A stretch of 64,000 bases of DNA, from assembly GCA_038065515.1 (NCBI GenBank), contig JBBTQV010000016.1:5462-69461 (forward strand), written 5' to 3'. Position numbers and translations under genes: made by a program. This DNA is from Patescibacteria group bacterium (GTDB lineage: Bacteria > Patescibacteriota > Minisyncoccia > 2-02-FULL-40-12 > GWA2-44-9). Within the stretch, counting starts at the first letter, position 1. Every line of letters begins with the position of its first letter. The notes under the pieces were generated by a model that worked only from the letters and a program-made list of their open reading frames with translations, searched no databases and was not told the DNA's origin. Positions 5,052-39,980 of the stretch are shown here, one piece after another.

Positions 5052-5342
5052 TTACATGTTCTGACCGCGGTCCATATTCTCAACTGGTTCGGGTGTCACA
5101 TCCTTCGGCTCCTGGTCACGCGCCACAGTGTCTTGTGCAGGGTCAATGGGCATAAGAACAACACCGACAATATACGCGAGAACCATCGGCCACCAACCGG
5201 AAAAGAACGCCACCGCGGCCATCAGTAACCGTATAAATATGACATCGACCTGCAGGTAATGCGCCAGCCCCGACCCGACCCCGAATACCAGGCCGTCTTT
5301 CGGAGAGCGGTACAATTTTTTGTTTTTCAGATGCTCAAACAT
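5052..5342 (-). CDS. PspC-domain membrane protein
   Basis: LYRSPKDGLVFGVGSGLAHYLQVD matches the PspC N-terminal domain, followed by a TM helix. Confidence 0.65.
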   Translation of the reverse strand: MFEHLKNKKLYRSPKDGLVFGVGSGLAHYLQVDVIFIRLLMAAVAFFSGWWPMVLAYIVGVVLMPIDPAQDTVARDQEPKDVTPEPVENMDRGQNM

Positions 5343-5352
5343 AATGGCGTTG

Positions 5353-5568
5353 TTATGATTCCGGCTCTTCCAAATCTCGTTTGAGCTCCTCGAATTCGTT
5401 TTCCACCTCTTTCAGACGCCCGCGGAGGTCTTTGATGAGTCCAGCGCCTTCGCGAACCCTTTTCAGGCCCTCCTCGACCTGCACCTCGGACTGCTCGTCA
5501 AACCATTCGATAATTTTCTCAAGTTTGCCCAGCGACTGCGAAATCGTTTCTTTATCTTCTTTTTTCAT
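5353..5568 (-). CDS. xseB: exodeoxyribonuclease VII small subunit
   Basis: 71-aa helical protein with the XseB pattern (LEKIIEWFDEQSEVQVEEGLKRVREG...LKEVENE), immediately downstream of xseA. Confidence 0.6.
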   Translation of the reverse strand: MKKEDKETISQSLGKLEKIIEWFDEQSEVQVEEGLKRVREGAGLIKDLRGRLKEVENEFEELKRDLEEPES

Positions 5569-5724: not shown

Positions 5725-6906
5725 CTATTGTTCAGATTGTAATTCTTTTACTTCGCTTGCGAAAGCCCCCTTTGCCAGACGGGTGTTAACGACCTGTCCG
5801 TGCCGCAACTGACTTGCCGAGCGGATGACCGCGCCTGCATCATCGGTCACGATGCTGTACCCGAGCCGGAGTTGTCGCTCCGGGCTCACCGCGACCAGCT
5901 GACGCTCTGCGGCATCAATTGTTTGCTGTATCTGTCCGATGACCTGTCCCACCCGTTGCATTGCAAGTGCGATGCGCTGTTGCAACCGCTGGCCCGCTCC
6001 CAAAATACGCTGCACAAATCCGTCCAACCGGTGCCACGCACCGTCGAGTCTGCCTTGTTCGGTATCGATAGCCCGCTCCATCGCATACAATAGCGTGTCC
6101 GCCTGACCCGAAATGTTACGAAGCCGATCCCACGATGCGTTGATGAGTATCGCGGTTGCTGTTGGCGTGCTGGCACTCGCATCGGCCGCCATCTGCGCCA
6201 GCGGCACATCGCGGTCATGACCGATGGAAATAATGGTAGGGACACGGGAAGCAAACACCGCCCGCACCACCAGCTCGTTGTTGAATGCCTGCAAATCTTC
6301 CATCGAGCCTCCCCCGCGAATAACCACCAGCACATCGATAGATTGCTTCCTGCGATTGAACGACCCGATTGCGGAGACAACTTGGTTCACTGCGGCCGCG
6401 CCTTCAACGCGCACATCACGGTGGTACACTTTCATGCCCAGCGCTGCCAGATTGCGCCGAAAATCGTCGATGACCGCACCGGTCTTACTGGTAATCAATC
6501 CGACCCGCGCAATGAATTCAGACAGCGCCCGTTTTCGTGCAAACAGCCCTTCTTCTTCAAGCTTTTTCTTCAGTGCTTCGTATGCCTTTTTCAGCGAGCC
6601 CTCCCCCACGGGTTCGAGTGTTTCCACCTTGAATGAGAATCTTCCTTTTGGTTTATAAATGGACGGAATACCACCGACTTTTACCTGCATACCGTCTTCG
6701 ATAACAATGCCCAGCCCCCGGTATGCATACGGACTCATATAGCAATCCATCACCCCGCCCGCTTCCGCATCTTTGAGCGAAAAATACATGCCGGTCGGAT
6801 GCGGCCGTGCACCGATGACCTCGCCTTGTACAAAAAAATCATGCGCTCCGAGAATCTCATTGATGAAATCCAAAAACTCGCCCACCGAGAATACGGCTGG
6901 CGGCAT
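5725..6906 (-). CDS. xseA: exodeoxyribonuclease VII large subunit
   Basis: Start refined to MPPAVFSVGEF (aligns with the E. coli XseA N-terminus). OB-fold then catalytic region GLITSKTGAVIDD...RGGGS. Confidence 0.85.
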   Translation of the reverse strand: MPPAVFSVGEFLDFINEILGAHDFFVQGEVIGARPHPTGMYFSLKDAEAGGVMDCYMSPYAYRGLGIVIEDGMQVKVGGIPSIYKPKGRFSFKVETLEPVGEGSLKKAYEALKKKLEEEGLFARKRALSEFIARVGLITSKTGAVIDDFRRNLAALGMKVYHRDVRVEGAAAVNQVVSAIGSFNRRKQSIDVLVVIRGGGSMEDLQAFNNELVVRAVFASRVPTIISIGHDRDVPLAQMAADASASTPTATAILINASWDRLRNISGQADTLLYAMERAIDTEQGRLDGAWHRLDGFVQRILGAGQRLQQRIALAMQRVGQVIGQIQQTIDAAERQLVAVSPERQLRLGYSIVTDDAGAVIRSASQLRHGQVVNTRLAKGAFASEVKELQSEQ

Positions 6907-6916
6907 ATTGGGACGG

Positions 6917-7921
6917 TTACCGAATAGTGGTTCTTGAGTCATGAATGGCCACTTGATACTGGTTCGAAATATCCACAGGAATTTGGGAAACATCGGCGAT
7001 GCGGCCGCCCGTAACGGTCACCACCAACAACAACCCTTTGCGTGTCTCTTCCGAAAAGTTCTGGTCAAAAACGAAATTACCCAACGAATACGCTATCCAT
7101 TTCCCTCCGTAGCGCTCTACATCTTGTACCACATGCGGATGCGTGCCGACAACAAGATCGGCTCCCGCATCGATAATCGCGTGGTACATCCGCCCTTGCA
7201 CAGCATTATGCAGTAATTCATATTCCGTGCCCGAGTGAACGGAAACCACCACGACATCCGCCATCGTACGCGCCCGAGCTACATCTTCTTTCATCCGCTG
7301 TTCATCCCAGATGTTAGCGCCGGAATGACTGGCGAGAGCTCCGGCGGAAGCGGGCAGCAGATCGGTATACGCGAGATACGCAATGCGCGCCCCTCGCACG
7401 GTGCGCACGACCGGCAAGCGCGCCTCTGCGGCATTTCTGCCTCCGCCGACCGCGCTGATGTCATTGACGGCTAGGTAACCGAGCGTATCGGTGAACGCCT
7501 GTGGTCCGAAGTCCCAGATGTGATTATTTGCCACCGACAACACATCGAAACCGGCATTCACCAGCCCAACAACGGCCTTCGGGTCGGCACGGAAGCAAAA
7601 ACCGCAACCGTTTTTTGCGCCACGGGTCGAAACGGTAGTCTCGAGATTTGCAAACGCGAGATCGGCAGATGCGGTCACTGAAGCGATGCGGGAGAACGGC
7701 CAGAGCCAGTCGCGCTTGGCGTTCATACTGTCACCCACCGAACGCGACAGCATGATGTCGCCTGCAAACAGGAGCATCACCGGTTGCGCGTCGCGGACAA
7801 TCGGCATCGGCGTGGTGCCCGCAACAATCCGCACAGTGCGCGTGCCGAGAGGATACAAAACGACGGCCCATGCGGAGGCCGCCAACAGCAGGACGATCAC
7901 AATTACTTGCCAGTGCTTCAT
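6917..7921 (-). CDS. capA: CapA/PgsA-family metallophosphatase (poly-gamma-glutamate/capsule synthesis protein family)
   Basis: MKHWQ... signal anchor, then DIMLSR, GTHPHVVQ and GNFVFDQ metallophosphatase motifs. Confidence 0.75.
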   Translation of the reverse strand: MKHWQVIVIVLLLAASAWAVVLYPLGTRTVRIVAGTTPMPIVRDAQPVMLLFAGDIMLSRSVGDSMNAKRDWLWPFSRIASVTASADLAFANLETTVSTRGAKNGCGFCFRADPKAVVGLVNAGFDVLSVANNHIWDFGPQAFTDTLGYLAVNDISAVGGGRNAAEARLPVVRTVRGARIAYLAYTDLLPASAGALASHSGANIWDEQRMKEDVARARTMADVVVVSVHSGTEYELLHNAVQGRMYHAIIDAGADLVVGTHPHVVQDVERYGGKWIAYSLGNFVFDQNFSEETRKGLLLVVTVTGGRIADVSQIPVDISNQYQVAIHDSRTTIR

Positions 7922-27091: not shown

Positions 27092-27553
27092 CCGGCAGGG
27101 TCGGTGCGTGCGATAAGCCGAGTTCTGTCCCCCATCATGTCGCCATGGTGGGGGGACCGTCATTTATCTGCGATGTGTGTTGCCACACACCTGTAGCCCA
27201 CCTTCGCTCTTGCGAGCTTCGGCGGACAATAGCGTACGAACTTTTCGCTGTGCCCTCCATAGCTTTAGCGACGGAGGGAATCAACGCTGTACTTGCACTC
27301 CGGTAAGGATTTAGCCGTTTCACCCCCGGTCTTGTTACCCGCGACCGGGATTGAGCGTAGCCTCCGATAGAATCGATGGCCCTGGGTCAGCTCTCCTGCA
27401 CCTTTCGGCGCAGATCGTCTCTGCTCGCACCTCTTGGCTTGCGCCAGACGGGAATTACCCGCTACCATTCTCAGTGCCATGTGGCACCGTAGTGCTCGGA
27501 CTTTCCTCACTCAGCCTTGCGGCCAGGCGCGACAGTCTGCACGCACCGACTCC
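27092..27553 (-). ncRNA. rnpB: RNase P RNA (bacterial type A)
   Basis: Minus strand carries GAGGAAAGTCCGAGC (P4 5' strand) and ACAGAACTCGGCTTATCG (P4 3' strand). P1 pairs GTCGGTGCGTGC with GCACGCACCGAC. GGGGGTGAAACGG J11/12-like. -10 TATACT at 27557-27562. Ends approximate (+/-10 nt). Confidence 0.8.
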
Positions 27554-31439: not shown

Positions 31440-32114
31440 CTATTTTAGCCGGAATGCCCCGGCAAGGGTCGCCAGTAAGCCTTTCTTCGCGGATTGAGCC
31501 GGTCCTTTTTGCATCTGCACAATCGCCACATGCGCTACGGCGGGAGCATGCTCCGTGGCATGCGACACCGCCGCCAGCACAGCGGAGCCGACCCGCGCCA
31601 GCCGTTCGTCTTCGACGCGCTGCACGAGCGATGAAAGCGTCGCGATTCGCGTTCGCATATCGCGGCGTTGGTCTATGGTTAGCATGTGTTGGACGGAGGC
31701 ATACGAAACTTTTACGCGATGATGGAGGTCACGGACAGCCGAAAGGTCAATCTGCTGCATTGTGGCCGGATATTCGGTGCGCAGCTTATTGATCAATCCC
31801 ATCAGCGCACGCCGCTCCTTTGATTGGGCCGGTGCCTCTGCCTGTTCATCCAGTTCCTGAAGCTTCTCCTGTGCGGCATCCAAACCATCATGAAGCATCT
31901 GAAGCTTTGCCTTCGTCAATTTGTTCTTCAGCGCAAACTCGAATGCCGATTCAAGAGACACGACATCCGCCAGAATATGCCGGACCTGTTCGTCATAAAG
32001 CTCCAACGGAATCAGAATGCGCGGCTCTTCAGGCGTTTTGACCGTTTGCCATTCAGCTTTCAGCGCTCGTATCTTCCGCTCGATTTCCGATTCGATATGT
32101 TCCGGGCTCGTCAT
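31440..32114 (-). CDS. hypothetical coiled-coil protein
   Basis: 224 aa. First gene of the apparent operon downstream of rnhA. Confidence 0.45.
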   Translation of the reverse strand: MTSPEHIESEIERKIRALKAEWQTVKTPEEPRILIPLELYDEQVRHILADVVSLESAFEFALKNKLTKAKLQMLHDGLDAAQEKLQELDEQAEAPAQSKERRALMGLINKLRTEYPATMQQIDLSAVRDLHHRVKVSYASVQHMLTIDQRRDMRTRIATLSSLVQRVEDERLARVGSAVLAAVSHATEHAPAVAHVAIVQMQKGPAQSAKKGLLATLAGAFRLK

Positions 32115-32129
32115 GATGCTTTCATTATA

Positions 32130-32576
32130 CTACAGCTCAAGTTTCGGGGAATCTTGTCGGTCAAGCGCTTCGTTGACCATGGCATCGGCGTCCTTGTTGT
32201 GCTCGCGGCGGACATGCGTGAACGAAATTTTGGCAAAATCCTGCCGCGCGTTGTACAAATCAACGAATAATTTCTTGAGTCCGGCATCGCGGACTTTGTA
32301 TTCCCCGTTCACCTGACGCACAAGCAATTCGCTGTCTGCCATCACGCGCACATGCGCCGCGCGGGCGCGTTCGGCTCCGATGAGCGTTTTCAGTTTGTTC
32401 AGCGCAAGAATCGCCGCGGAGTACTCGGCAACATTGTTGGTCTGCACCCCTAGGTAGTGTCCTTGCTCGGTCCGGCGGATATCCGGACCTTCAATAACAT
32501 ACCCCGCCGCAGCAGGACCGGGATTTCCACGGGACCCGCCGTCGGTGTATACGGTGTACACAGATATGCTACTCAT
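32130..32576 (-). CDS. rnhA: ribonuclease HI
   Basis: YTDGGSRGNPGPAAAGYV, AEYSAAILAL, HVRREHNKDADAMVNEA (DEDD catalytic residues). Start MSSISVYT chosen; ORF-track start 32636 would overlap the upstream gene. Confidence 0.85.
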   Translation of the reverse strand: MSSISVYTVYTDGGSRGNPGPAAAGYVIEGPDIRRTEQGHYLGVQTNNVAEYSAAILALNKLKTLIGAERARAAHVRVMADSELLVRQVNGEYKVRDAGLKKLFVDLYNARQDFAKISFTHVRREHNKDADAMVNEALDRQDSPKLEL

Positions 32577-33165
32577 ATTTCCGGTCCATGAGCTTCTTGA
32601 AGATTTCGTAGGTCGCACGCGCATCCACAAGCGCATCGTGCCACTGCTGGTTCTTGAGATGAAAATATCTTACTACTTCACGCATACGAAATCCGTCCAT
32701 ATGTGAACGGTACAAGTCGCTGAAAATCATACTCTGCACATCCAGTACCTGCCAATGATACGAGGGCTCGATGCCCACCTGATGAAATGATTTCTTGAGC
32801 TGAAAGAAATCACCGACAACATTATACCCGATGAGTACCGCGCCGCTGACGAATGCATCGAACCGCATCAGCGCCTCTTTCAGCGGTATGGCGTCTTTCC
32901 ATTTGCGCGCAGAATAACCAATGAGCTCCAGTGCTTTGCGGTCACCGTTCTCCATGTGTCGCGGTTTTACCCGCGTCTGCCATTCGCCGATAATTTCAAA
33001 TTTTGGCTGGTTCACCAACACAACACCGATTTGCAGTATCTCGTTGATAGCAGACAGTCCGGAAAATTCCAAGTCGACGAACGCTAGCGGCCGCTCCTTG
33101 ATACGCGTATCCGATACATACCGCAACGGCATCTTTTCTTTTGGTTTTTTTACTTTATGCTCCAT
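32569..33165 (-). CDS. dnaQ: DEDDh 3'-5' exonuclease (DnaQ/epsilon-like)
   Basis: Exo I FVDLEFSGL, Exo II YNVVGDFFQL, Exo III HDALVDARATYEIF. Confidence 0.7.
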   Translation of the reverse strand: MEHKVKKPKEKMPLRYVSDTRIKERPLAFVDLEFSGLSAINEILQIGVVLVNQPKFEIIGEWQTRVKPRHMENGDRKALELIGYSARKWKDAIPLKEALMRFDAFVSGAVLIGYNVVGDFFQLKKSFHQVGIEPSYHWQVLDVQSMIFSDLYRSHMDGFRMREVVRYFHLKNQQWHDALVDARATYEIFKKLMDRKYE

Positions 33166-33168
33166 GTT

Positions 33169-34164
33169 TCATGCTTCATCGTAATACCCAAGTACTTTGA
33201 GCCCTGGTAGCTGTGTGCCCGCAAGAAATGCGAGCATCGCTCCCCCGCCGGTGGAAACAAATGTAAACTTCTCCAGCAGTCCGAGAACATCAACCGCAGA
33301 AATGGTATCACCGCCCCCGATAATCGACAATGCGCCGCTTGCGGCGATGGCACGGGCGATCGCTTCGGTTCCGGCCATGAATCGCGCATCCTCAAAACGC
33401 CCCATGGGCCCGTTCCAAATAATGAGCTTCGCTCCTTCCGCGAGCACCGTAAATGCCCGCGTCGTCTCGGGCCCGATGTCCCGTGCGTGGCCATCGTCCA
33501 TGATAAAATCCGTCGGCAAGTGCAGTCGTGAGTCTTGCGTATTGATATTTGTCATCCCTGCGAGAATCTCATTGGCAGCCACACCGCCGACGGCAACATG
33601 CTCTGCTCGTACGATAAGATGTTCGATGACCGGTATCTTCGTGCTCGCCTTGGCACCGCCGATGTAGACTACTTTCCCCTGCGCGGGTGCATTAATGGCT
33701 TTCACAAGCTGTCGGGTTTCTTCCTGTATCAGCAAGCCGGCATACGCGGGCAAGAGTTTTGCCGCCGCAACAACCGATGCATGCTCGCGATGGCACACCG
33801 CGAACGCACTATTTACATAGAGGTCGCATCCCGCGACCAGCTCGCGTGCAAACGATTCGTCGTTGGTTTCTTCTCCGGGATGCTGGCGCGTGTTCTCCAA
33901 CAGCACTACCTCATCCCCGAATGTAACGCCAAGCAATTGCTCCAATTGCGGTTTGAGCGGTTCAAAACTTGGCACCGCGGAGATGTGTGCCGCCAACACT
34001 ACATGCGCGCCGCGCGAAAGCAGATAGTCCAGCGTTGGCTTCTGCCGCACGATGCGATAGCGTTCGGCAATCGTGCCATCAGTATTCACAGGTACATCAA
34101 AATCCGCGCGCAGAAATACTTTCTTGCCGCGTATATTCCCTGCTTGGTCGAGTGTACGCATCAT
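33169..34164 (-). CDS. pgk: phosphoglycerate kinase (compact, 331 aa)
   Basis: VFLRADFDVP, LENTRQHPGEE, IIGGGDT, STGGGA. ATG overlaps the RT1 stop (ATGA). Confidence 0.9.
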   Translation of the reverse strand: MMRTLDQAGNIRGKKVFLRADFDVPVNTDGTIAERYRIVRQKPTLDYLLSRGAHVVLAAHISAVPSFEPLKPQLEQLLGVTFGDEVVLLENTRQHPGEETNDESFARELVAGCDLYVNSAFAVCHREHASVVAAAKLLPAYAGLLIQEETRQLVKAINAPAQGKVVYIGGAKASTKIPVIEHLIVRAEHVAVGGVAANEILAGMTNINTQDSRLHLPTDFIMDDGHARDIGPETTRAFTVLAEGAKLIIWNGPMGRFEDARFMAGTEAIARAIAASGALSIIGGGDTISAVDVLGLLEKFTFVSTGGGAMLAFLAGTQLPGLKVLGYYDEA

Positions 34165-35150
34165 ATGCTCTCTCGAATATTATAGGTATTTCCGTGTCCC
34201 AACAACCCCCGATATGACTGCCTTGTTGCTTCTACCGGACATTCCCGCAACCGTCTGAACATCCGGCGCTTTGTATTCATCCGCAGTACTCGGTGATCCG
34301 GGAAGTGCGCCCAGCCCAGGAAGTCGATGCCGGAAGCTAGAGTGCGGAGAGAAACCTTGTGTGGATGCAAATCGAGATGAAGTTTTTCCTGCAGAAAGTC
34401 GCCGATACGAGACAGGAGTTCCTGCAAATAAGACTTGTCGCCGTGCAGAATTGCAAAGTCGTCCGCGTAGCGGATGTAGTGTTTCACTTTGAGCGCGTGT
34501 TTCACCCACTGATCAAACTCGTTCATATAGATATTCACCATGAGCTGTGATGTCAGGTTGCCGAGAGGGAGGCCCGGGAAGAAGCTGGAAATAATGCGGG
34601 ACAGAAGCCAGAGGGTATCGGAGTCAGGAATGTGTTTAGCTATGATGTCGTTCAGAATGTCGTGGTCTATACTGGCAAAAAACTTGCGGATGTCGCACTG
34701 TAGCACCCAGCAGGTGCGGGTATGATTCTGGGAGACCCGGTACCCAAAGGCGCGAAACCGGTTTAGTGCACGATGCGTGCCTTTGCCCAGCTGACAGGAG
34801 AAGGAGTCGGCAATGAATTTCCTGCTGAAATAGTGACACAGCACCCGATGCACGGCGTGGTGCAGAAGGCGGTCCCGCACACTTGCTTTGTGGATACTCC
34901 GTGGCTTTGGGTCAGAAATGTTAAATGCTTCGTATGGTGAGTGGTGATATGTTTTTGCAATCAGATCGTTATGGAGCATAACAACATTATCCATTAGGTT
35001 GTGCTCAAAATCCTGCACATCTCTACGGGCCCGCTTGCCGCCCAAAAACTCCTTCCATGCTCCAAGGAGATTTTCCAAAGAAATGATATGCTGAAAGCCC
35101 TCATCAAGCTGAATATGACTCATTCGCCCAATAATACCCCCCCGGCTCAT
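34161..35150 (-). CDS. diversity-generating retroelement reverse transcriptase (DGR-1 RT)
   Basis: RT motifs: LPLGNLTSQLMVNIYMNEFD (DGR-specific SQ in motif 4) and YIRYADDFAIL (motif 5/C). A TR/VR pair is adjacent. True start may be the internal Met at 35123 (MSHIQLDEGF). Confidence 0.85.
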   Translation of the reverse strand: MSRGGIIGRMSHIQLDEGFQHIISLENLLGAWKEFLGGKRARRDVQDFEHNLMDNVVMLHNDLIAKTYHHSPYEAFNISDPKPRSIHKASVRDRLLHHAVHRVLCHYFSRKFIADSFSCQLGKGTHRALNRFRAFGYRVSQNHTRTCWVLQCDIRKFFASIDHDILNDIIAKHIPDSDTLWLLSRIISSFFPGLPLGNLTSQLMVNIYMNEFDQWVKHALKVKHYIRYADDFAILHGDKSYLQELLSRIGDFLQEKLHLDLHPHKVSLRTLASGIDFLGWAHFPDHRVLRMNTKRRMFRRLRECPVEATRQSYRGLLGHGNTYNIRESI

Positions 35151-35508
35151 TCCACTACTCCAAAGCGCAAAAAGCGCTTACGGACTTTGGTATAGCTATC
35201 TTCAGACACTCCCGAAAACCCATCGGCACTCCCTGGGCGTGAGGGTTGATGCGTTATTTATTGAAATCATTGAGACACTCGCAGTCGCGAGTTTTCTGGT
35301 GCGTGAAGAAAAAATCCCTTATGTGCGTATTGCTATCAGAAAAACGGATACCCTCAAAATACTACTGATGGTGCTCTGGGAAACAAAATCACTCGACGAT
35401 AAAAAGTACATCGCACTATCGCTCAAGATAGACGAGATTGGCAGGATGCTTGGCGGATGGAGCGGTCAACTTCAAAAACAAAACTCCCCCACGAAGGGAG
35501 AGAAATGA
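35115..35508 (+). CDS. avd: Avd-like four-helix-bundle protein (DGR-1 accessory variability determinant), N-terminal segment out of frame at a C7 tract
   Basis: ORF-track GTG 35239..35508. The same frame upstream (from 35119) encodes ...AYGLWYSYLQTLPKTHRHSLG, matching the Avd/IVS N-terminal helix, but has no start. ATG 35115 is in the -1-adjacent frame and is joined by deleting one C from the C7 run at 35137-35143. Opposite strand to the RT. Confidence 0.6.
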
Positions 35509-35515
35509 AGAGAGT

Positions 35516-35647
35516 TGCGCGGGGCCAAGAACACCCACCGATTGTCAGGGTACCAGGCATTGTCGGGCTTACCGTAGTTGCTGTTCAACCACCGGTCACT
35601 GCTGTCGTGTTCGACATTGAACACCTTCAGGTAGTCGTCCGAGTCCG
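35516..35647 (-). repeat. DGR-1 template repeat (TR1)
   Basis: 132 bp, near-identical to the target1 3' end. Differs at 14 positions, every one an adenine in TR (coding/minus strand). Lies inside the spurious ORF 35472..35768. Confidence 0.85.
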
Positions 35648-35883
35648 TGTATAAAGGATGCCGTCTATGCCACTGTCCCTCGAATGCTCTTGGGACTGTA
35701 TCGTATTCGGCATCATTAATGCCATAACATCCTTTACCAAGTATCTTCATTTTTTGAAGTTTCTGCATATGTCCTCCATCTCAAACCGTAATCGGAGATG
35801 TTCTCAACATACGGATACTGGATTCGGCAGCGGGAAACCGTAATCTCCCACATATTCGCCTAATACCAAAGTGAGTATACCAG

Positions 35884-35925
35884 AATAAAGAAAGTGGCCG
35901 TACACGCTTTCGCATGCACGGCCAC
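35884..35925 (-). terminator. rho-independent terminator after DGR-1 target gene
   Basis: gtggccgt...acggccac 8-bp stem followed (minus strand) by TTTCTTTATT. Confidence 0.5.
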
Positions 35926-35988
35926 CAGACGGGGCCGAAGGACTAAGGTTCAGAGGTCAGACAGACCAAAGAAACTAAGTGCCGAGGA

Positions 35989-36603
35989 CTAAGTCGTGCG
36001 CGGGGCCAAGAACACCCACCGACCGGCAGGGTACCAGGCATGGCCGGGCTCACCGTAGTAGCTGTACAACCACCGGCCACTGCCGACGTGTTCGACACTG
36101 AACACCTTCAGGTAGCCGCCCGAGTCCGCGAGGGGCTCCATGGCAATCAGGAGCCATTCTCCGGGGGGTTGATCAGGGTACTGCAGACGAAGCTGCGGAC
36201 CGACCTCGGCGGGACAGAGCCGGAGTCCCAACTCCAGAGCACGGGCGTAGATGGTATCGCGGCGAGCGGCCTGGGTGAAGCCCAGATCAGTGCCGGAGAC
36301 GATAACGAGATCGAGCTTGGTCTTCTTGGGGCTCATGCTGTTCTTGGCCAGGATCCGACCGGCGTAGTCGCTGATGCGGAAGCCCGCGGATACCAGCGAT
36401 GCGCGGAGCCCGTCCACGGTCTTGAAGGTACCAAGTGTGATGGTCTTCCAGACCGGGAACTGGGGCCAGGGGTCCTCCTTGCGGAGGAACCGCTTGAAGG
36501 CGGCGAACCACTGGGGACCTTCGGGTCCGGCGAGTTTCTCAAAAAATGCCTTGAACGGTCCGGCCGTCTCGGCCAGAGCGCTTGCGTCGAGCATGATGGA
36601 CAT
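35989..36603 (-). CDS. DGR-1 target protein (204 aa, no signal peptide) with C-terminal variable region
   Basis: C-terminus ...YLKVFSVEHVGSGRWLYSYYGEPGHAWYPAGRWVFLAPR is the VR counterpart of TR1 (N/D/K in TR become Y/G/H/E/A/V here). Confidence 0.75.
   Translation of the reverse strand: MSIMLDASALAETAGPFKAFFEKLAGPEGPQWFAAFKRFLRKEDPWPQFPVWKTITLGTFKTVDGLRASLVSAGFRISDYAGRILAKNSMSPKKTKLDLVIVSGTDLGFTQAARRDTIYARALELGLRLCPAEVGPQLRLQYPDQPPGEWLLIAMEPLADSGGYLKVFSVEHVGSGRWLYSYYGEPGHAWYPAGRWVFLAPRTT
35997..36128 (-). repeat. DGR-1 variable repeat (VR1) at 3' end of target gene
   Basis: Aligned base-by-base to TR1. All 14 mismatches correspond to TR adenines. GC-rich IMH-like end (GGCCCCGCGCA) shared with TR. 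Confidence 0.85.
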
Positions 36604-36672
36604 GGTCGACTCCTTTCAGAAAACGAGGAAAGTGGTTTTTAACGAGCGCAGGGACTGATGTCACCCTGTATT

Positions 36673-37530
36673 TTAATTACACTCCTGTCTTCCTGATTTG
36701 TCAATCCCCTGTATCTCATCTTCTGCAATCTCGCTTGCAATGGTGAGAATCCGCGCAAAATCTTCAGCGCGGACGGACGCCCCGCCGACGAGAACGCCGG
36801 AAATTTCGGAGCGTTGCAAAAACTCATGCGCATTGGCAGGCGTCACCGAACCGCCATAGAGAAAGGCGATGTGCGACACATCGAAATGATCGGCTAACGC
36901 TTCGCGGATGAGACTCATCGACTGCACGGCGCTGGCGGGCGTGTCGGGTTTGGCATCAGGGTTGGTGCTAATGGCCCACACCGGCTCGTACGCTATGATG
37001 CACTGCCCTACCTGTCCGGGCGTCAATCCGCGGAATGTCGCGGCGACCTGCGCTTTGAGCGCATCCTGCCAATCGCCCTCGCGAGCTTGCCCGCCGAAGC
37101 CTTGGCGTAGGCGGGTGCGCTCACCGACGCACACAATAGGCACCAATCCGTTGCGGAGCGCCGCCCGCAGTTTTTCGTTGACCATTTCGTCATCTTCATT
37201 GAGCTTGTAGCGCCGGTCACTGTGCCCAACAATCACATACCGCACGCCGAGTTTTGCCAGTTGCGGACCGCTCACCTCGCCCGTCTGTGCGACATCATCA
37301 CGCGCCGCAATATCCTGCGCACCCAACCGCGCTACATCGGCAAGCACGCCTTCGCCCAACATTGCGGCGACATCTTCCAGAAAAACAAACGGCGGACAGA
37401 ACACAATATCCAGCTGTTGCGCCCCTGCGCCCAGTCCGCGGACATGTTCGTCAATTTTCGCGACAATATCCTGCGCCTCGGCAAGAGTCTTCGGATTCAT
37501 CTTCCAATTCGCGATGATTAACTTTTTCAT
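36673..37530 (-). CDS. tpiA: triosephosphate isomerase
   Basis: IANWKMN, GHSDRR, IAYEPVWAIST, GGSV. ATG overlaps the RT2 stop (ATGA). Confidence 0.9.
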   Translation of the reverse strand: MKKLIIANWKMNPKTLAEAQDIVAKIDEHVRGLGAGAQQLDIVFCPPFVFLEDVAAMLGEGVLADVARLGAQDIAARDDVAQTGEVSGPQLAKLGVRYVIVGHSDRRYKLNEDDEMVNEKLRAALRNGLVPIVCVGERTRLRQGFGGQAREGDWQDALKAQVAATFRGLTPGQVGQCIIAYEPVWAISTNPDAKPDTPASAVQSMSLIREALADHFDVSHIAFLYGGSVTPANAHEFLQRSEISGVLVGGASVRAEDFARILTIASEIAEDEIQGIDKSGRQECN

Positions 37531-38561
37531 GTGGAATAGAGCCACGCAACATTGCGCAATTCCTGTTCTATCTTATACGCATTCCCGTGGCCGAGCAATC
37601 CGAGATAGGACTGGAGCGTAGTCTGGACTGGCCTCTTTACGATGTTACGGAACGCTCGTCGTTTCGTTACTGTTCGCAGAACTTTGTGGGTTGGAAAATA
37701 GGACCATCCAAGAAAGTCGACACCGGATGCCAATGTCTTGAGCGCAATCTTCCGAGGATGCAAGTGCAACAACAAATAGCATTGCAGGAAGTCGCTTACG
37801 CATGGAACGAGCGAGACCAGAAAAACTCTGTTGGGATGCAGTATGACAAAATCATCTGCGTAGCGGATATAGTGAGGCAAACCCATCCGGTTCTTCATGA
37901 AGCAATCCAGCTCATTCATATAGATATTGGCCAGTAGTTGCGATGTCAGATTACCCAACGGCAAACCCCTACCAGGGCTTGCATGGAAACTGCTGATGAC
38001 TTCTTGAAGAAGCCTCATAACCAAAGCATCTGAAATCGTCCGCGCAAGAATGGCCGATAGTCTGACATGGTCGATGCTGGCAAAGAATTTTCGGATGTCA
38101 CACTTCAACACCCAGCAGGTCCGAGTATTGTTTTCGCTTGTCTTGTTGATGAAAGAACGGAATCGCGCTCCGGCTGCATGAATCCCCTTGTCTACCCGAC
38201 AAGAAAATGAATCGGAAATGAATAGATGGTCAAAGATTGGATATAACACTCGATGGATTGCGTGATGGAGCAAACGGTCGCGAACTGTTGCCTTATGGAT
38301 ATGGCGCGGCTTGGGATCGCAAATATGAAAGCTGTGATACGGACCATGCCGATACGCTCCATTGGCAAGCTCGTCGTGCAGGTATAGGATGTTGTCCATC
38401 AGTTCCCGCTCGAATTCTTGGACATCAACCTTGTCCCGCTTGCCAGACACGAACTCTTGCCATGCGAGCAGAAGATTTTCCAGAGAAATTATTTCCTCAA
38501 ACATACAAAAACCTATATGACCCCCCCCCCAACAAGACTTACCGATACTGCAAAAGGCCAC
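37527..38561 (-). CDS. diversity-generating retroelement reverse transcriptase (DGR-2 RT), paralogue of RT1
   Basis: LPLGNLTSQLLANIYMNELD and YIRYADDFVIL. Roughly 60% identical to RT1 by eye. True start probably MFEEIISLE at 38504. Confidence 0.85.
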   Translation of the reverse strand: MAFCSIGKSCWGGGHIGFCMFEEIISLENLLLAWQEFVSGKRDKVDVQEFERELMDNILYLHDELANGAYRHGPYHSFHICDPKPRHIHKATVRDRLLHHAIHRVLYPIFDHLFISDSFSCRVDKGIHAAGARFRSFINKTSENNTRTCWVLKCDIRKFFASIDHVRLSAILARTISDALVMRLLQEVISSFHASPGRGLPLGNLTSQLLANIYMNELDCFMKNRMGLPHYIRYADDFVILHPNRVFLVSLVPCVSDFLQCYLLLHLHPRKIALKTLASGVDFLGWSYFPTHKVLRTVTKRRAFRNIVKRPVQTTLQSYLGLLGHGNAYKIEQELRNVAWLYST

Positions 38562-38874
38562 CGCCGCATACCTGCTCTGGCATGAGTGTCTTCCCCGTTT
38601 ACCGCGATTGACTCGGTTTACCCTCGGCTCAAAAATAGATCGACTCTATCTCGAGACTATCGAATACATGCTCATCGCCGGATATACCGCCCGCGAACGA
38701 AAGCTCGTTATCGTTCAACAAGCAAGCGCCAAACTCGATACGCTCAAGTTTTTCTTGAAAATCGCCTGGCAGGCAAAAGCGCTGTCTCCAAAAAAGTATG
38801 CGGAGCTGTCAGCGCCAGTCGCCGAGATTGGTAAGATGCTCGGCGGCTGGCATAAACAGTTGACCAGCGAATAG
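38517..38874 (+). CDS. avd: Avd-like four-helix-bundle protein (DGR-2), N-terminus out of frame at a C10 tract
   Basis: ORF-track TTG 38608..38874. Same frame upstream from 38521 encodes PPPQQDLPILQKATAAYLLWHECLPRLPRL, homologous to the Avd1 N-terminal region. ATG 38517 is joined if the C10 run (38521-38530) were C9. Confidence 0.6.
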
Positions 38875-39001
38875 ACTTGCGGACTGCGGCGAAACGGTAG
38901 TTCTCGTTCCACTCGTTGTCGAACCAGTTCAGGTTCAGGTTGCGTTCATGGTCGTTCCGGTTCAGATACGCCACATTGCGGTTGTCATTGACCTTGGCCA
39001 C
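38875..39001 (-). repeat. DGR-2 template repeat (TR2)
   Basis: 127 bp matching the target2 3' end with 12 differences, all at TR adenines. Lies inside the spurious ORF 38744..39004. Begins 1 nt after the Avd2 stop. Confidence 0.85.
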
Positions 39002-39236
39002 CATGTGCAGAGTGCCATCCGTATCACTGTCCTTTAGCTATCTTCGGGACTGTATTTTATCCGGAGCCTGTGCTCACCAGCACCCTGCACCAAGTATATT
39101 CATTGGAAGAGAATTGCGATGGCACACTGACGACGAACATGTTCGCAGTCATTCTGTCCGGTCGCCAATTCTAGAATTCGGCCGCCCGAAGCCGTAGCCG
39201 CGGACCGCATCGCCTACTATCCACAGACAGTATACA

Positions 39237-39278
39237 CAAAAAAGAAACCGCCGTGCGAGCACGATGCTCGCACGGCGG
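39237..39278 (-). terminator. rho-independent terminator after DGR-2 target gene
   Basis: 13-bp perfect stem ccgccgtgcgagc/gctcgcacggcgg with 5-nt loop, then T-run on minus strand. Confidence 0.55.
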
Positions 39279-39284
39279 AAGGAA

Positions 39285-39305
39285 CCAAGGCTCCCAGCAC
39301 CTTGG
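39285..39305 (-). promoter_or_regulatory. hairpin immediately 3' of VR2 (candidate DGR target-recognition/IMH-associated stem-loop)
   Basis: ccaagg-ctcccagca-ccttgg. Located about 30 nt past the VR2 end. DGR VRs are typically followed by such a hairpin. Confidence 0.4.
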
Positions 39306-39335
39306 CCAGTGCCAAGAGCCCCAGGTTCCCAGTGC

Positions 39336-39980
39336 TTACTTGCGGACTGCGGCGAAACGGTAGTTCTCGAACCACTCGCTGTCGAACCAGTACAGGTTCA
39401 GGTAGCGTACACGGTCGTACCGGTCCAGATACGCCACATAGCGGTCGTCATGGACCTTGGCCACGGTGCCCAGCGCAACGATGGGAAACTCCAACTGGAG
39501 ACCCGAGTGTTGGATGCCGATCCAGAGCAACTCCAAGAAGGTGGCCGGACGCAGACCTTGGCGGTCCATGTCAGCGATGACCTCGTCCGAGGTCATCCGC
39601 TTGTTGTAGTGGAGCAGATGGACTTCGGCGGTACGGGTGCCGTCTCCGGTACCGAAACTGAAATGCTTGACGATGTTGGAGTTGACCCAGTCGTACTTGC
39701 CGTCGGCGATGAGCTGGACCGTTGTCTTGGTCAGATCCATCATCACGGAGATGGTGCGGTCGAGGAACTCGATGGCGGTACGCTTGGTACCGACGATGAG
39801 TTGGGCAATTTTGCCGCGCAAGTCCTTGCTCGTGAGGATTCGCTCCAGGTCGGCGTCGTTGCCACCCAGCGCGAGCACCGCATCCACGAGGGCCTTGAAC
39901 ACCTCGAACGCCTTACCCCAACCCTTGAGAAACTCACTCTTCTGACGAGCCATAGCTCGCCTCCTTCGTTTGTGGCTCAT
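39336..39980 (-). CDS. DGR-2 target protein (214 aa, no signal peptide) with C-terminal variable region
   Basis: C-terminus VAKVHDDRYVAYLDRYDRVRYLNLYWFDSEWFENYRFAAVRK versus TR-encoded VAKVNDNRNVAYLNRNDHERNLNLNWFDNEWNENYRFAAVRK. Confidence 0.75.
   Translation of the reverse strand: MSHKRRRRAMARQKSEFLKGWGKAFEVFKALVDAVLALGGNDADLERILTSKDLRGKIAQLIVGTKRTAIEFLDRTISVMMDLTKTTVQLIADGKYDWVNSNIVKHFSFGTGDGTRTAEVHLLHYNKRMTSDEVIADMDRQGLRPATFLELLWIGIQHSGLQLEFPIVALGTVAKVHDDRYVAYLDRYDRVRYLNLYWFDSEWFENYRFAAVRK
39338..39464 (-). repeat. DGR-2 variable repeat (VR2)
   Basis: All 12 mismatches to TR2 are at TR adenine positions. Ends at the target stop codon. Confidence 0.85.

Follow-up and report, generated by a model that had tools for sequence, protein, structure and literature searches.

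A diversity-generating retroelement of the Patescibacteria type and conserved non-coding features of its template RNA and target site

The stretch of DNA considered here (the window; 64,000 nucleotides of contig JBBTQV010000016.1 from the Patescibacteria group bacterium assembly GCA_038065515.1) carries at 34161-36603 an element, DGR-1, which a first-pass annotation had called a complete diversity-generating retroelement (DGR) made up of a reverse transcriptase (RT), a template repeat (TR) and a target gene with a variable repeat (VR). All of these parts were found, and to them must be added one that the annotation had omitted, an avd gene (avd1) on the plus strand. We regard DGR-1 as very probably a complete, cellular DGR of the type found in Patescibacteria (the candidate phyla radiation, CPR), with the arrangement target(VR)/TR/(avd reverse)/RT. 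A second complete DGR, DGR-2 (37527-39980, minus strand), lies directly upstream and flanks tpiA. As a DGR, DGR-1 is of little note, having the standard CPR layout and a typical small, domainless target; its value is that of a clean and compact example from which, together with ∼65 relatives, class-wide features can be read.

TR1 (35516-35647, minus strand; 132 nt, 31 of them adenines, 365 nt from the start of the RT gene) and VR1 (35997-36128, minus strand; target residues 159-202) were picked out by a repeat finder as a single 132-nt direct repeat of 89% identity. Read on the minus strand, they differ at 14 of the 132 positions, and at all 14 the TR copy has A where VR1 has G (nine sites), T (three) or C (two); given 31 adenines in 132 nt, the hypergeometric p value for this is ∼1e-10. 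All 14 mismatches stand at codon position 1 or 2 of the target frame, as do 30 of the 31 TR1 adenines, and they bring about 13 residue changes (D162G, D163G, N169S, D173V, S174G, D176G, N180Y, N182Y, K185E, D187G, N188H, D193A and N194G). The annotation had reported 14 mismatches, each at a TR adenine with C, G or T in the VR, along with the resulting codon changes, and had named mismatches away from TR adenines as an outcome that would speak against a DGR; on re-alignment the mismatches fell only at TR adenines, and the 13 residue changes agreed exactly with the strings it gave. That the 132-nt pair holds no non-adenine mismatch argues against long neutral decay. At the 3′ end, 26 nt (35997-36022, minus strand) are the same in both copies and the flanks differ right after. 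This end is G+C-rich and A-free but for its final base, which matches the description of the IMH and IMH* (initiation of mutagenic homing) sequences in Wu et al. 2018 (PMC5758913), and it may act as such an element. The TR-side and VR-side types of flank beyond it are each kept across relatives.

Relatives were collected as 79 genome loci with homologues of the DGR-1 target (T1) and 80 metagenome loci with homologues of the DGR-2 target (T2), the metagenome scan for the latter being run with a 10-sequence alignment as a 30-sequence alignment was too diverse. T1 and T2 are distant homologues of one another (hhalign probability 86%). The same cassette was present at ∼36 T1-family loci, where the VR is followed at a distance of ∼250-410 nt by a TR of 121-140 nt and the two repeats differ almost exclusively at adenine sites; among the T2-family loci, 30 carry both an RT and the RNA domain described below, and all 33 detected avd genes are reverse-oriented. 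In all, ∼65 related loci have the cassette with adenine-specific TR/VR differences, and since its content and layout recur in this way DGR-1 is a regular member of a documented class. Those T1 homologues that bear a taxon name are all from CPR, and the genome loci with T1 homologues are mostly titled as CPR, with a few metagenome-assembled genomes (MAGs) under other phylum labels.

RT1 (34161-35150, minus strand; 329 aa) matches RVT_1 (2.7e-21) and contains LGNLTSQ and YADD. Its true start may be the second ATG, at 35123; homology in related loci begins at residues 4-19. Its best solved relative is the Bordetella enzyme bRT (8ub7; E 6.2e-42), with group II intron RTs at ∼1e-18, and GLPLGNLTSQL and RYADD of RT1 align to GIPIGSLTSQL and RYMDD of bRT. 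The LPLGNLTSQ and YADD that the annotation had assigned to a DGR RT therefore stand, the SQ motif included. The sequence of RT1 is that of a DGR-type RT whose active site is intact; the top NCBIfam model for it is a group II intron RT/maturase, at 128 bits against a cut-off of 300.

Avd is found in ∼74% of DGRs. In DGR-1 the gene (∼35149-35508, plus strand) lies between the RT and the TR and is oriented against RT, TR and target. An 89-aa open reading frame (ORF; 35239-35508) matched bAvd PF22296 at 2e-5 and NF033474 DivGenRetAVD at 2.3e-9. The first canonical start is the GTG at 35239, but the frame is open from 35119, that is, for 40 codons (35119-35238) before the first ATG, GTG or TTG, and Avd homology begins at ∼35155. 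Inclusion of this upstream extension lifted the NF033474 score from 37.5 to 59.4 bits (E 3.4e-16, profile positions 3-102 of 104), as against a curated cut-off of 80 bits for that model and of 40 bits for PF22296, where avd1 scores 39.5. The avd gene of DGR-2 (avd2) likewise gained, from 61.2 to 77.3 bits; Avd2 is above the Pfam cut-off and 44% identical to Avd1. The N-terminal Avd helix 1 is kept in ∼36 related loci, several of which also have no canonical start there. We infer that avd1 uses a non-canonical start (e.g., ATT at 35149) and overlaps the 5′ end of the RT gene head to head. The extensions of both genes (35119-35238 and 38521-38607, plus strand) encode helix 1 without ATG, GTG or TTG and overlap the divergent RT 5′ end; a conserved PPPP motif within them may be the antisense of the G-rich ribosome-binding site of the RT. 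Public gene calls on identical or near-identical contigs shorten avd1 and avd2 to 89 and 68 aa.

The target T1 (35989-36603, minus strand; 204 aa) is predicted with high confidence, by structure modelling, to have a divergent C-type-lectin fold, as the annotation had guessed; this domain comes after a helical hairpin at the N terminus and contains the variable residues. It had also described a protein of 204 aa with neither signal peptide nor transmembrane segment, and a hydrophobicity scan agreed (no hydrophobic 19-residue stretch; maximum Kyte-Doolittle mean 0.89). T1 had no match in Pfam or NCBIfam, and a MAG of a Patescibacteria group bacterium has an annotated protein identical to it. The G+C content at third codon positions of the T1 and T2 genes is 0.79-0.80, compared with 0.54-0.63 for the RTs, pgk and tpiA and a window G+C of 53.8%; codon selection and foreign origin are both possible causes. 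At L026:5803-6468 and L039:2639-3295 a T2-like N-terminal module is joined to a T1-type lectin domain, which indicates that N-terminal modules are shuffled among these small DGR targets. Two arrangements of repeats also differ from that of DGR-1: locus L025 has two TR-like copies (6827-6964 and 7308-7441) downstream of one target, and at locus L059 two targets stand in tandem (5067-5552 and 6001-6462), the VR of each matching one and the same TR with differences at adenines only.

Between the target and the RT, TR1 appears to be embedded in an RNA of its own. The predicted TR-RNA unit (35474-35866, minus strand; ∼390 nt, placed from promoter, structure and hairpin) comprises, in order, a 5′ structured domain, the TR, a linker and a terminator-like hairpin. 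The conserved 5′ domain (35648-35866, minus strand; 219 nt) forms eight helices with a three-way junction that closes a few nucleotides before the TR. When 38 sequences (36 related loci plus DGR-1 and DGR-2; alignment A7) were folded with RNAalifold, 45 of the 51 predicted pairs showed compensatory double changes; paired cells amounted to 97.3%, compared with 78% in shuffles and 37-48% when partners were slid by 1-3 columns, and there were 399 double-change cells, while no control had more than 85. Folded on its own, the window sequence gives these helices as well (z = −3.56). An nhmmer profile of the domain, that is, a sequence profile rather than a covariance model, found it in all 30 RT-bearing loci of the independent T2 set, in each case in the orientation of the target and located between it and the reversed avd. 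Exactly two matches occur in the window, one per DGR, the DGR-1 copy having the top score (E 8e-58). Rfam 15 returned no match for the domain, nor any family within 35100-36100, at E up to 10. This strongly covarying template-RNA domain, a feature of the whole class, is absent from Rfam.

Seven nucleotides upstream of the RNA 5′ end is an extended −10-like element, TGgTATACT (35874-35882, minus strand). By inspection, a TATAAT-like hexamer, often after TGn, precedes G(K)UAGUAGGYGAAUAU by 7-8 nt in ∼20-25 loci and in DGR-2; a generic sigma-70 scan reported no promoter for the TR-RNA, so that it is positional conservation that points to this element. Taken together, the putative promoter, the conserved structure and the terminal hairpin lead us to read 35866 to ∼35474 as one ∼390-nt non-coding RNA gene. 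A 98-aa ORF at 35472-35768, which had been called the TR rather than a gene, lies within this conserved structured RNA, with only its last 2 nt (part of the stop codon) just past the U-tract; it had no family match and is spurious. Partial 5′ pieces of the RNA domain were seen downstream of orphan T1 homologues without an RT (loci L022, L010, L039, L055, L032 and L054), and these look like remnants of decayed cassettes. At L005:3768-4700 a target is directly followed by a TR-type flank (linker plus hairpin), as would be expected from TR/VR recombination or assembly collapse.

The 5′ domain is tied to the 3′ end of the TR by a long-range helix. Its upstream strand is the box AAAUGAAGA (35744-35752, minus strand) within the 5′ domain, and its downstream strand is the linker UCUUCAUUU (35503-35511, minus strand), which begins 4 nt beyond the 3′ end of the TR, shares sequence with the avd1 stop codon of the opposite strand and is the reverse complement of the box, giving 9 bp. 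Across the alignment 94.4% of cells are paired, compared with 47-56% in slid controls, six of the nine pairs show compensatory changes, and double-change cells number 16 as against at most 7 in controls; in DGR-2 eight of the nine pairs are kept, with two compensations. A single-sequence fold offered a local hairpin, CUUC/GAAG, as the partner of the box. Where the box has changed from G to A, it is the linker and not the local partner that carries the compensating change, and the long-range helix is therefore preferred. A further pairing, CCAGUA:UACU(U)GG, was dropped because one side is invariant and so cannot covary. Directly after the box lies UACUUGGU (35736-35743, minus strand), invariant at seven of its eight positions in the 38 sequences, with C nearly invariant.

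Thirteen nucleotides after the TR begins a stem-loop, CUCUCCC-UUCGU-GGGGGAG followed by UUUUGUUUUU (35474-35502, minus strand), which a terminator scan returned and which is terminator-like. A hairpin with a 7-11-bp stem is present at this place in 38 of the 38 related sequences, with 34 distinct stems and covarying inner pairs, and some of the stems are wholly different (ACCCGTC/GACGGGT, CTCCTCC/GGAGGAG). These were extracted sequence by sequence, as MAFFT with RNAalifold gave only five poorly supported pairs owing to variable loop lengths. A T-rich tract follows the hairpin in most, whereas DGR-2 and loci L031 and L045 have no clear one.

From the 40 nt before and the 100 nt after the TR, stem-loops 3′ of the TR and duplexes between its upstream and downstream sides have been predicted for 207 DGRs out of 278 that contain Avd, those of CPR among them (Handa 2024, bioRxiv 10.1101/2023.10.23.563531). 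The post-TR stem-loop and the long-range helix thus have counterparts already predicted there, whereas the 219-nt 5′ domain lies outside the 40 nt covered. In the Bordetella RNA, the 140-nt spacer 3′ of the TR holds an Avd-binding stem-loop directly 3′ of the TR, the primer, the Thumb Ring and an RT-binding stem-loop, and a short upstream segment paired to the spacer forms the cPRT Stop (Handa 2024, bioRxiv 10.1101/2023.10.23.563531). The DGR-1 stem-loop stands at the position of the Avd-binding stem-loop and may bind Avd. The remainder is arranged differently: only ∼45 nt of conserved RNA follow the TR before the U-tract, compared with the 140-nt spacer, and what lies beyond is antisense avd; 219 nt of structured domain lie 5′ of the TR where Bordetella needs ∼20 nt upstream; and, in contrast to the cPRT Stop, the upstream strand of the DGR-1 duplex is 96 nt before the TR rather than adjacent to it, while the downstream strand directly follows the TR. 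A primer adenosine, Thumb Ring and RT-binding stem-loop of the Bordetella type were not found in the ∼45 nt after the TR, the segment covered here as distinct from antisense avd. On the simplest reading the 5′ domain would supply the protein-docking, and possibly the priming, functions, and the box:linker helix could equally be a template:primer duplex.

The hairpin and U-tract may, however, not be a terminator at all, in which case the RNA would extend across antisense avd as far as the RT, forming a spacer like that of Bordetella, and the 5′ domain would have another role, such as that of a regulatory leader or a stability element. We regard this as somewhat unlikely. The RT-binding and priming elements of Bordetella all lie 3′ of the TR, stem-loops and duplexes were predicted for CPR Avd systems with no more than 40 nt upstream and 100 nt downstream, conservation of the U-tract could partly reflect coding for the Avd C terminus on the other strand, and DGR-2 is without a clear hairpin plus U-tract. 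Yet the 5′ domain, with its 45 covarying pairs, is by far the best-supported structure (in a comparison that leaves out the antisense-avd region, where coding confounds the analysis), a covarying helix ties it to the TR 3′ end, it stands at a fixed distance from the conserved −10 element, and it accompanies the RT in every one of the independent loci.

Conserved non-coding sequence was also found on the target side. VR1 is followed by an array of ∼8 phased units (35927-35988, minus strand; CTTAG, CTCGG, CTTTG and CTTCG, period 7-8 nt), within which a 4-bp inverted repeat GGTC-N5-GACC (35955-35967, minus strand) starts 21 nt after the stop codon and 29 nt after the VR, and then by the intrinsic terminator of T1 (35883-35926, minus strand; 14-15-bp stem, GAAA loop and T-run), 70 nt after the VR. 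The flank is of the same kind throughout the T1 family, with 50-80 nt of phased units (CTTGG, CTTAG, CTTTG, CTCGG) and then a strong terminator hairpin, the equivalent hairpin and T-run lying 50-85 nt after the VR in most related loci. Motif density after T1-family stop codons was 3.7 per 70 nt against a background of 0.39, with a spacing peak at 7-8 nt, and the pentamers CCCTT and CTTGG were enriched 16- to 20-fold; the independent T2-family set gave a density of 3.6 against 0.47. No arrays in the window are stronger than the two that follow VR1 and VR2, and of the 36 strong arrays found when 744 kb from related loci were scanned, 26 are at target 3′ ends. GGTC-N4-6-GACC occurred in 15 of 84 flanks, mostly from +21 after the stop (background 0.8%). 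No description of such an array was found in the searchable literature. The CUUGG core of UACUUGGU is present, on the same strand, in the arrays after VR1 (35927-35988) and VR2 (39280-39337), and the sharing could reflect a common protein-binding motif or RNA-DNA pairing at the target.

A GC-rich hairpin or cruciform with a GRNA tetraloop after the VR is a phage-type feature present in 34% of DGRs. In phage DGRs it lies 4-34 bp after the VR and has a stem of 7-10 bp (Guo 2011). Within that distance of VR1 there is only the GGTC-N5-GACC inverted repeat; the GC-rich hairpin of DGR-1 is outside the range, and in contrast to the phage elements the phased array fills the gap between VR and hairpin. 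As a DGR cruciform the hairpin 70 nt after the VR was rejected as the main reading, being out of range and having a 14-15-bp stem and a T-run, although a dual role as terminator and cruciform is possible.

The 5′ RNA structure, the box:linker helix and the post-VR array are real, conserved features, and what follows concerns the functions that they may have. By analogy with the Bordetella phage DGR, a ∼390-nt RNA would be transcribed from its own −10 promoter at ∼35866 and end at the hairpin/U-tract at ∼35474; the RT-Avd complex would be bound by the 5′ domain of 219 nt together with the stem-loop that comes right after the TR; and the 9-bp AAAUGAAGA:UCUUCAUUU helix would hold the TR 3′ end against the 5′ domain, where cDNA synthesis would start. 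The RT would misincorporate opposite template adenines, and the cDNA would replace VR1, its 3′ limit set by the A-free, GC-rich end and its 5′ limit by homology. The outcome would be variation at up to 22 adenine-containing VR codons of a soluble lectin-fold protein. More generally, we propose tentatively, and as something short of an even chance, that DGRs of the CPR clade use a rearranged template RNA, in which elements for docking and possibly for cis-priming, which Bordetella has in the 3′ spacer, are in the 5′ domain of the ∼390-nt RNA, in which the box:linker helix is an initiation (template:primer) or positioning duplex, and in which the CTTGG-type array is a target-site mark that replaces the phage-type cruciform. 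For cDNA priming outside Bordetella, and for target recognition and integration by any DGR, the conserved elements are concrete and mutable candidates.

DGR-2 consists of RT2 (37527-38561, minus strand; 59% identical to RT1), the reversed avd2 (∼38539-38874, plus strand), TR2 (38875-39010, minus strand), VR2 (39338-39473, minus strand) in the target T2 (39336-39980) and the second copy of the RNA 5′ domain (39003-39217, minus strand). VR2 and TR2 have 16 differences, of which 13 are at adenines and the other three at the 5′ edge. A scan of both strands of the window at non-adenine positions found no further VRs for TR1 or TR2. A sister strain (L080; GCA_964360775.1) shares 99.4% identity with the window over 13 kb, and TR2 is the same in both, while its VR2 differs from that of the window at 13 sites, all at TR2 adenines, compared with 68 differences elsewhere in ∼13,090 nt. 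We thus conclude that DGR-2 has recently been active; a third VR2 variant was present in a short contig.

At the DGR-1 site the sister strain is different (L080:13228-16659, corresponding to 32089-36727 of the window). The locus there is decayed: it retains a 227-aa T1 homologue (27% identical) with its own CTTGG-type array and terminator, but both TR and avd are missing, and in its RT residues 14-63 are joined to 239-329. Between flanks of ∼99% identity, the sequence from 36727 to 32089 is replaced, or only 89% identical (pgk region), which suggests a recombination tract or allele replacement. Together with the partial RNA-domain remnants at orphan targets, this suggests that decay of such cassettes is frequent. 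The VR2 strain pair and the decayed and intact DGR-1 loci provide a snapshot from nature of how DGRs act and are turned over in Patescibacteria of groundwater.

Several observations weigh against DGR-1 being a complete, functioning element. There is no canonical start codon 5′ of the conserved first helix of avd1, and both Avd scores are below the NCBIfam curated cut-off. DGR-1 DNA is essentially the same in five other assemblies from two wells of the Hainich groundwater (H41 and H51), with one mismatch in one short contig, and over the locus four assemblies are 99.9-100% identical; neither a 15-billion-protein collection nor the 90%-identity cluster, which holds one VR1 sequence, contained a VR1 variant. 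The sister strain, with its decayed locus, demonstrates that loss does occur. In addition, the TR-RNA promoter, the transcript ends, ribonucleoprotein binding and the priming site are predictions from sequence.

DGR-1 could accordingly be a recently inactivated relic whose TR/VR differences record past homing, for instance if the avd1 start has been lost. The absence of VR1 variants and the lack of a canonical start before helix 1 speak for this, as do the sister cassette, with no TR or avd and an RT without its catalytic core, and the remnants beside orphan targets elsewhere, which show that decay is common. We consider this improbable. The RT1 reading frame and catalytic motifs are intact, as are all of the RNA helices and conserved boxes, with the RNA domain scoring higher than that of DGR-2, and TR and VR have no non-adenine mismatch. 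A missing canonical avd start is shared with the active DGR-2 and with several related loci and so looks like a feature of the clade rather than a lesion. Moreover, the assemblies probably sample one population, so that the absence of VR1 variants carries little weight. We therefore retain the reading of DGR-1 as a complete DGR. Finally, that TR1 is an ordinary partial duplication of the target 3′ end, diverged by point mutation beside an unrelated RT (retron, group II or defence), can be dismissed, since, although the best NCBIfam model for RT1 is the group II RT/maturase at well below its cut-off, all 14 mismatches are at the adenines of one copy, the adenine pattern is repeated in the ∼36 related loci, RT1 matches bRT 23 orders of magnitude better than it does group II RTs, an Avd is present and no intron, retron or other Rfam RNA was matched.

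The genes around the two elements follow one another on one strand in the order target2, TR2, RT2, tpiA, target1, TR1, RT1, pgk. The stop codon of RT1 overlaps the start of pgk (ATGA, 34161-34164) and the 3′ end of RT2 overlaps the start of tpiA by 19 nt (37527-37545), which suggests that the RTs may be co-transcribed with housekeeping (glycolytic) genes. Elsewhere the window holds four tRNA genes and a class A RNase P RNA (27098-27548, minus strand), which scored 105.5 bits against an Rfam gathering threshold of 100 over the full model, consistent with a divergent CPR RNase P RNA.

Paul and colleagues are said to have made, in 2017, the first survey of DGRs in CPR/Patescibacteria. In the classification of Wu et al. 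2018 (PMC5758913), 90% of CPR DGRs have architecture B3, that is, TR-(avd)-RT with avd reversed. CPR genomes show a significant enrichment in DGRs and have a clade restricted to them (clade 2); small targets with neither signal peptide nor transmembrane segment are the reported norm there, typically without any recognisable domain, and are predicted to hide new C-lectin variants (Roux et al. 2021, PMC8144416). DGR-1 has in common with the elements of these two studies its host group, gene order, reversed avd and adenine-specific TR/VR differences, as well as a C-terminal VR in a small target without a transmembrane segment or known domain and the presence of more than one DGR in a small genome; at the level of the cassette there is no difference. 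The searchable literature on CPR DGRs mentions neither a structured RNA domain 5′ of the TR, nor an array after the VR, nor a non-canonical start of avd, and these may be undescribed properties of the whole class. Three non-coding features of the class, exemplified in the window and supported statistically by the related loci, are the 5′ domain of the template RNA, the helix at the TR 3′ end and the phased array at target 3′ ends, and the functions given to all three are putative.

The RT-10 RNA motif (Weinberg et al. 2017, PMC5737381), the Rfam family for the TR-RT spacer of the Bordetella type, resembles the DGR-1 domain in being structured and attached to a DGR template, and has been proposed to serve in priming; it lies 3′ of the TR, however, whereas the DGR-1 structure lies 5′, and the two have no sequence or structure match at E up to 10. 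Among variable proteins with a C-type-lectin fold, Treponema TvpA (2y3c) and Bordetella Mtd (1yu0) are 10-14% identical to T1, which is without their usual C-terminal motif and is a soluble protein of 204 aa with a two-helix N-terminal module rather than a phage fibre, lipoprotein or surface protein. With the DGR of Bordetella phage BPP-1 (mtd-avd-TR-brt), DGR-1 shares the RT family and its motifs, an Avd partner, a C-type-lectin-fold target with a C-terminal VR, a GC-rich invariant 3′ end of the repeats, a stem-loop just 3′ of the TR and, in a different geometry, a duplex between upstream and downstream segments, but its avd is on the other strand, and it is cellular whereas the BPP-1 element is phage-borne.

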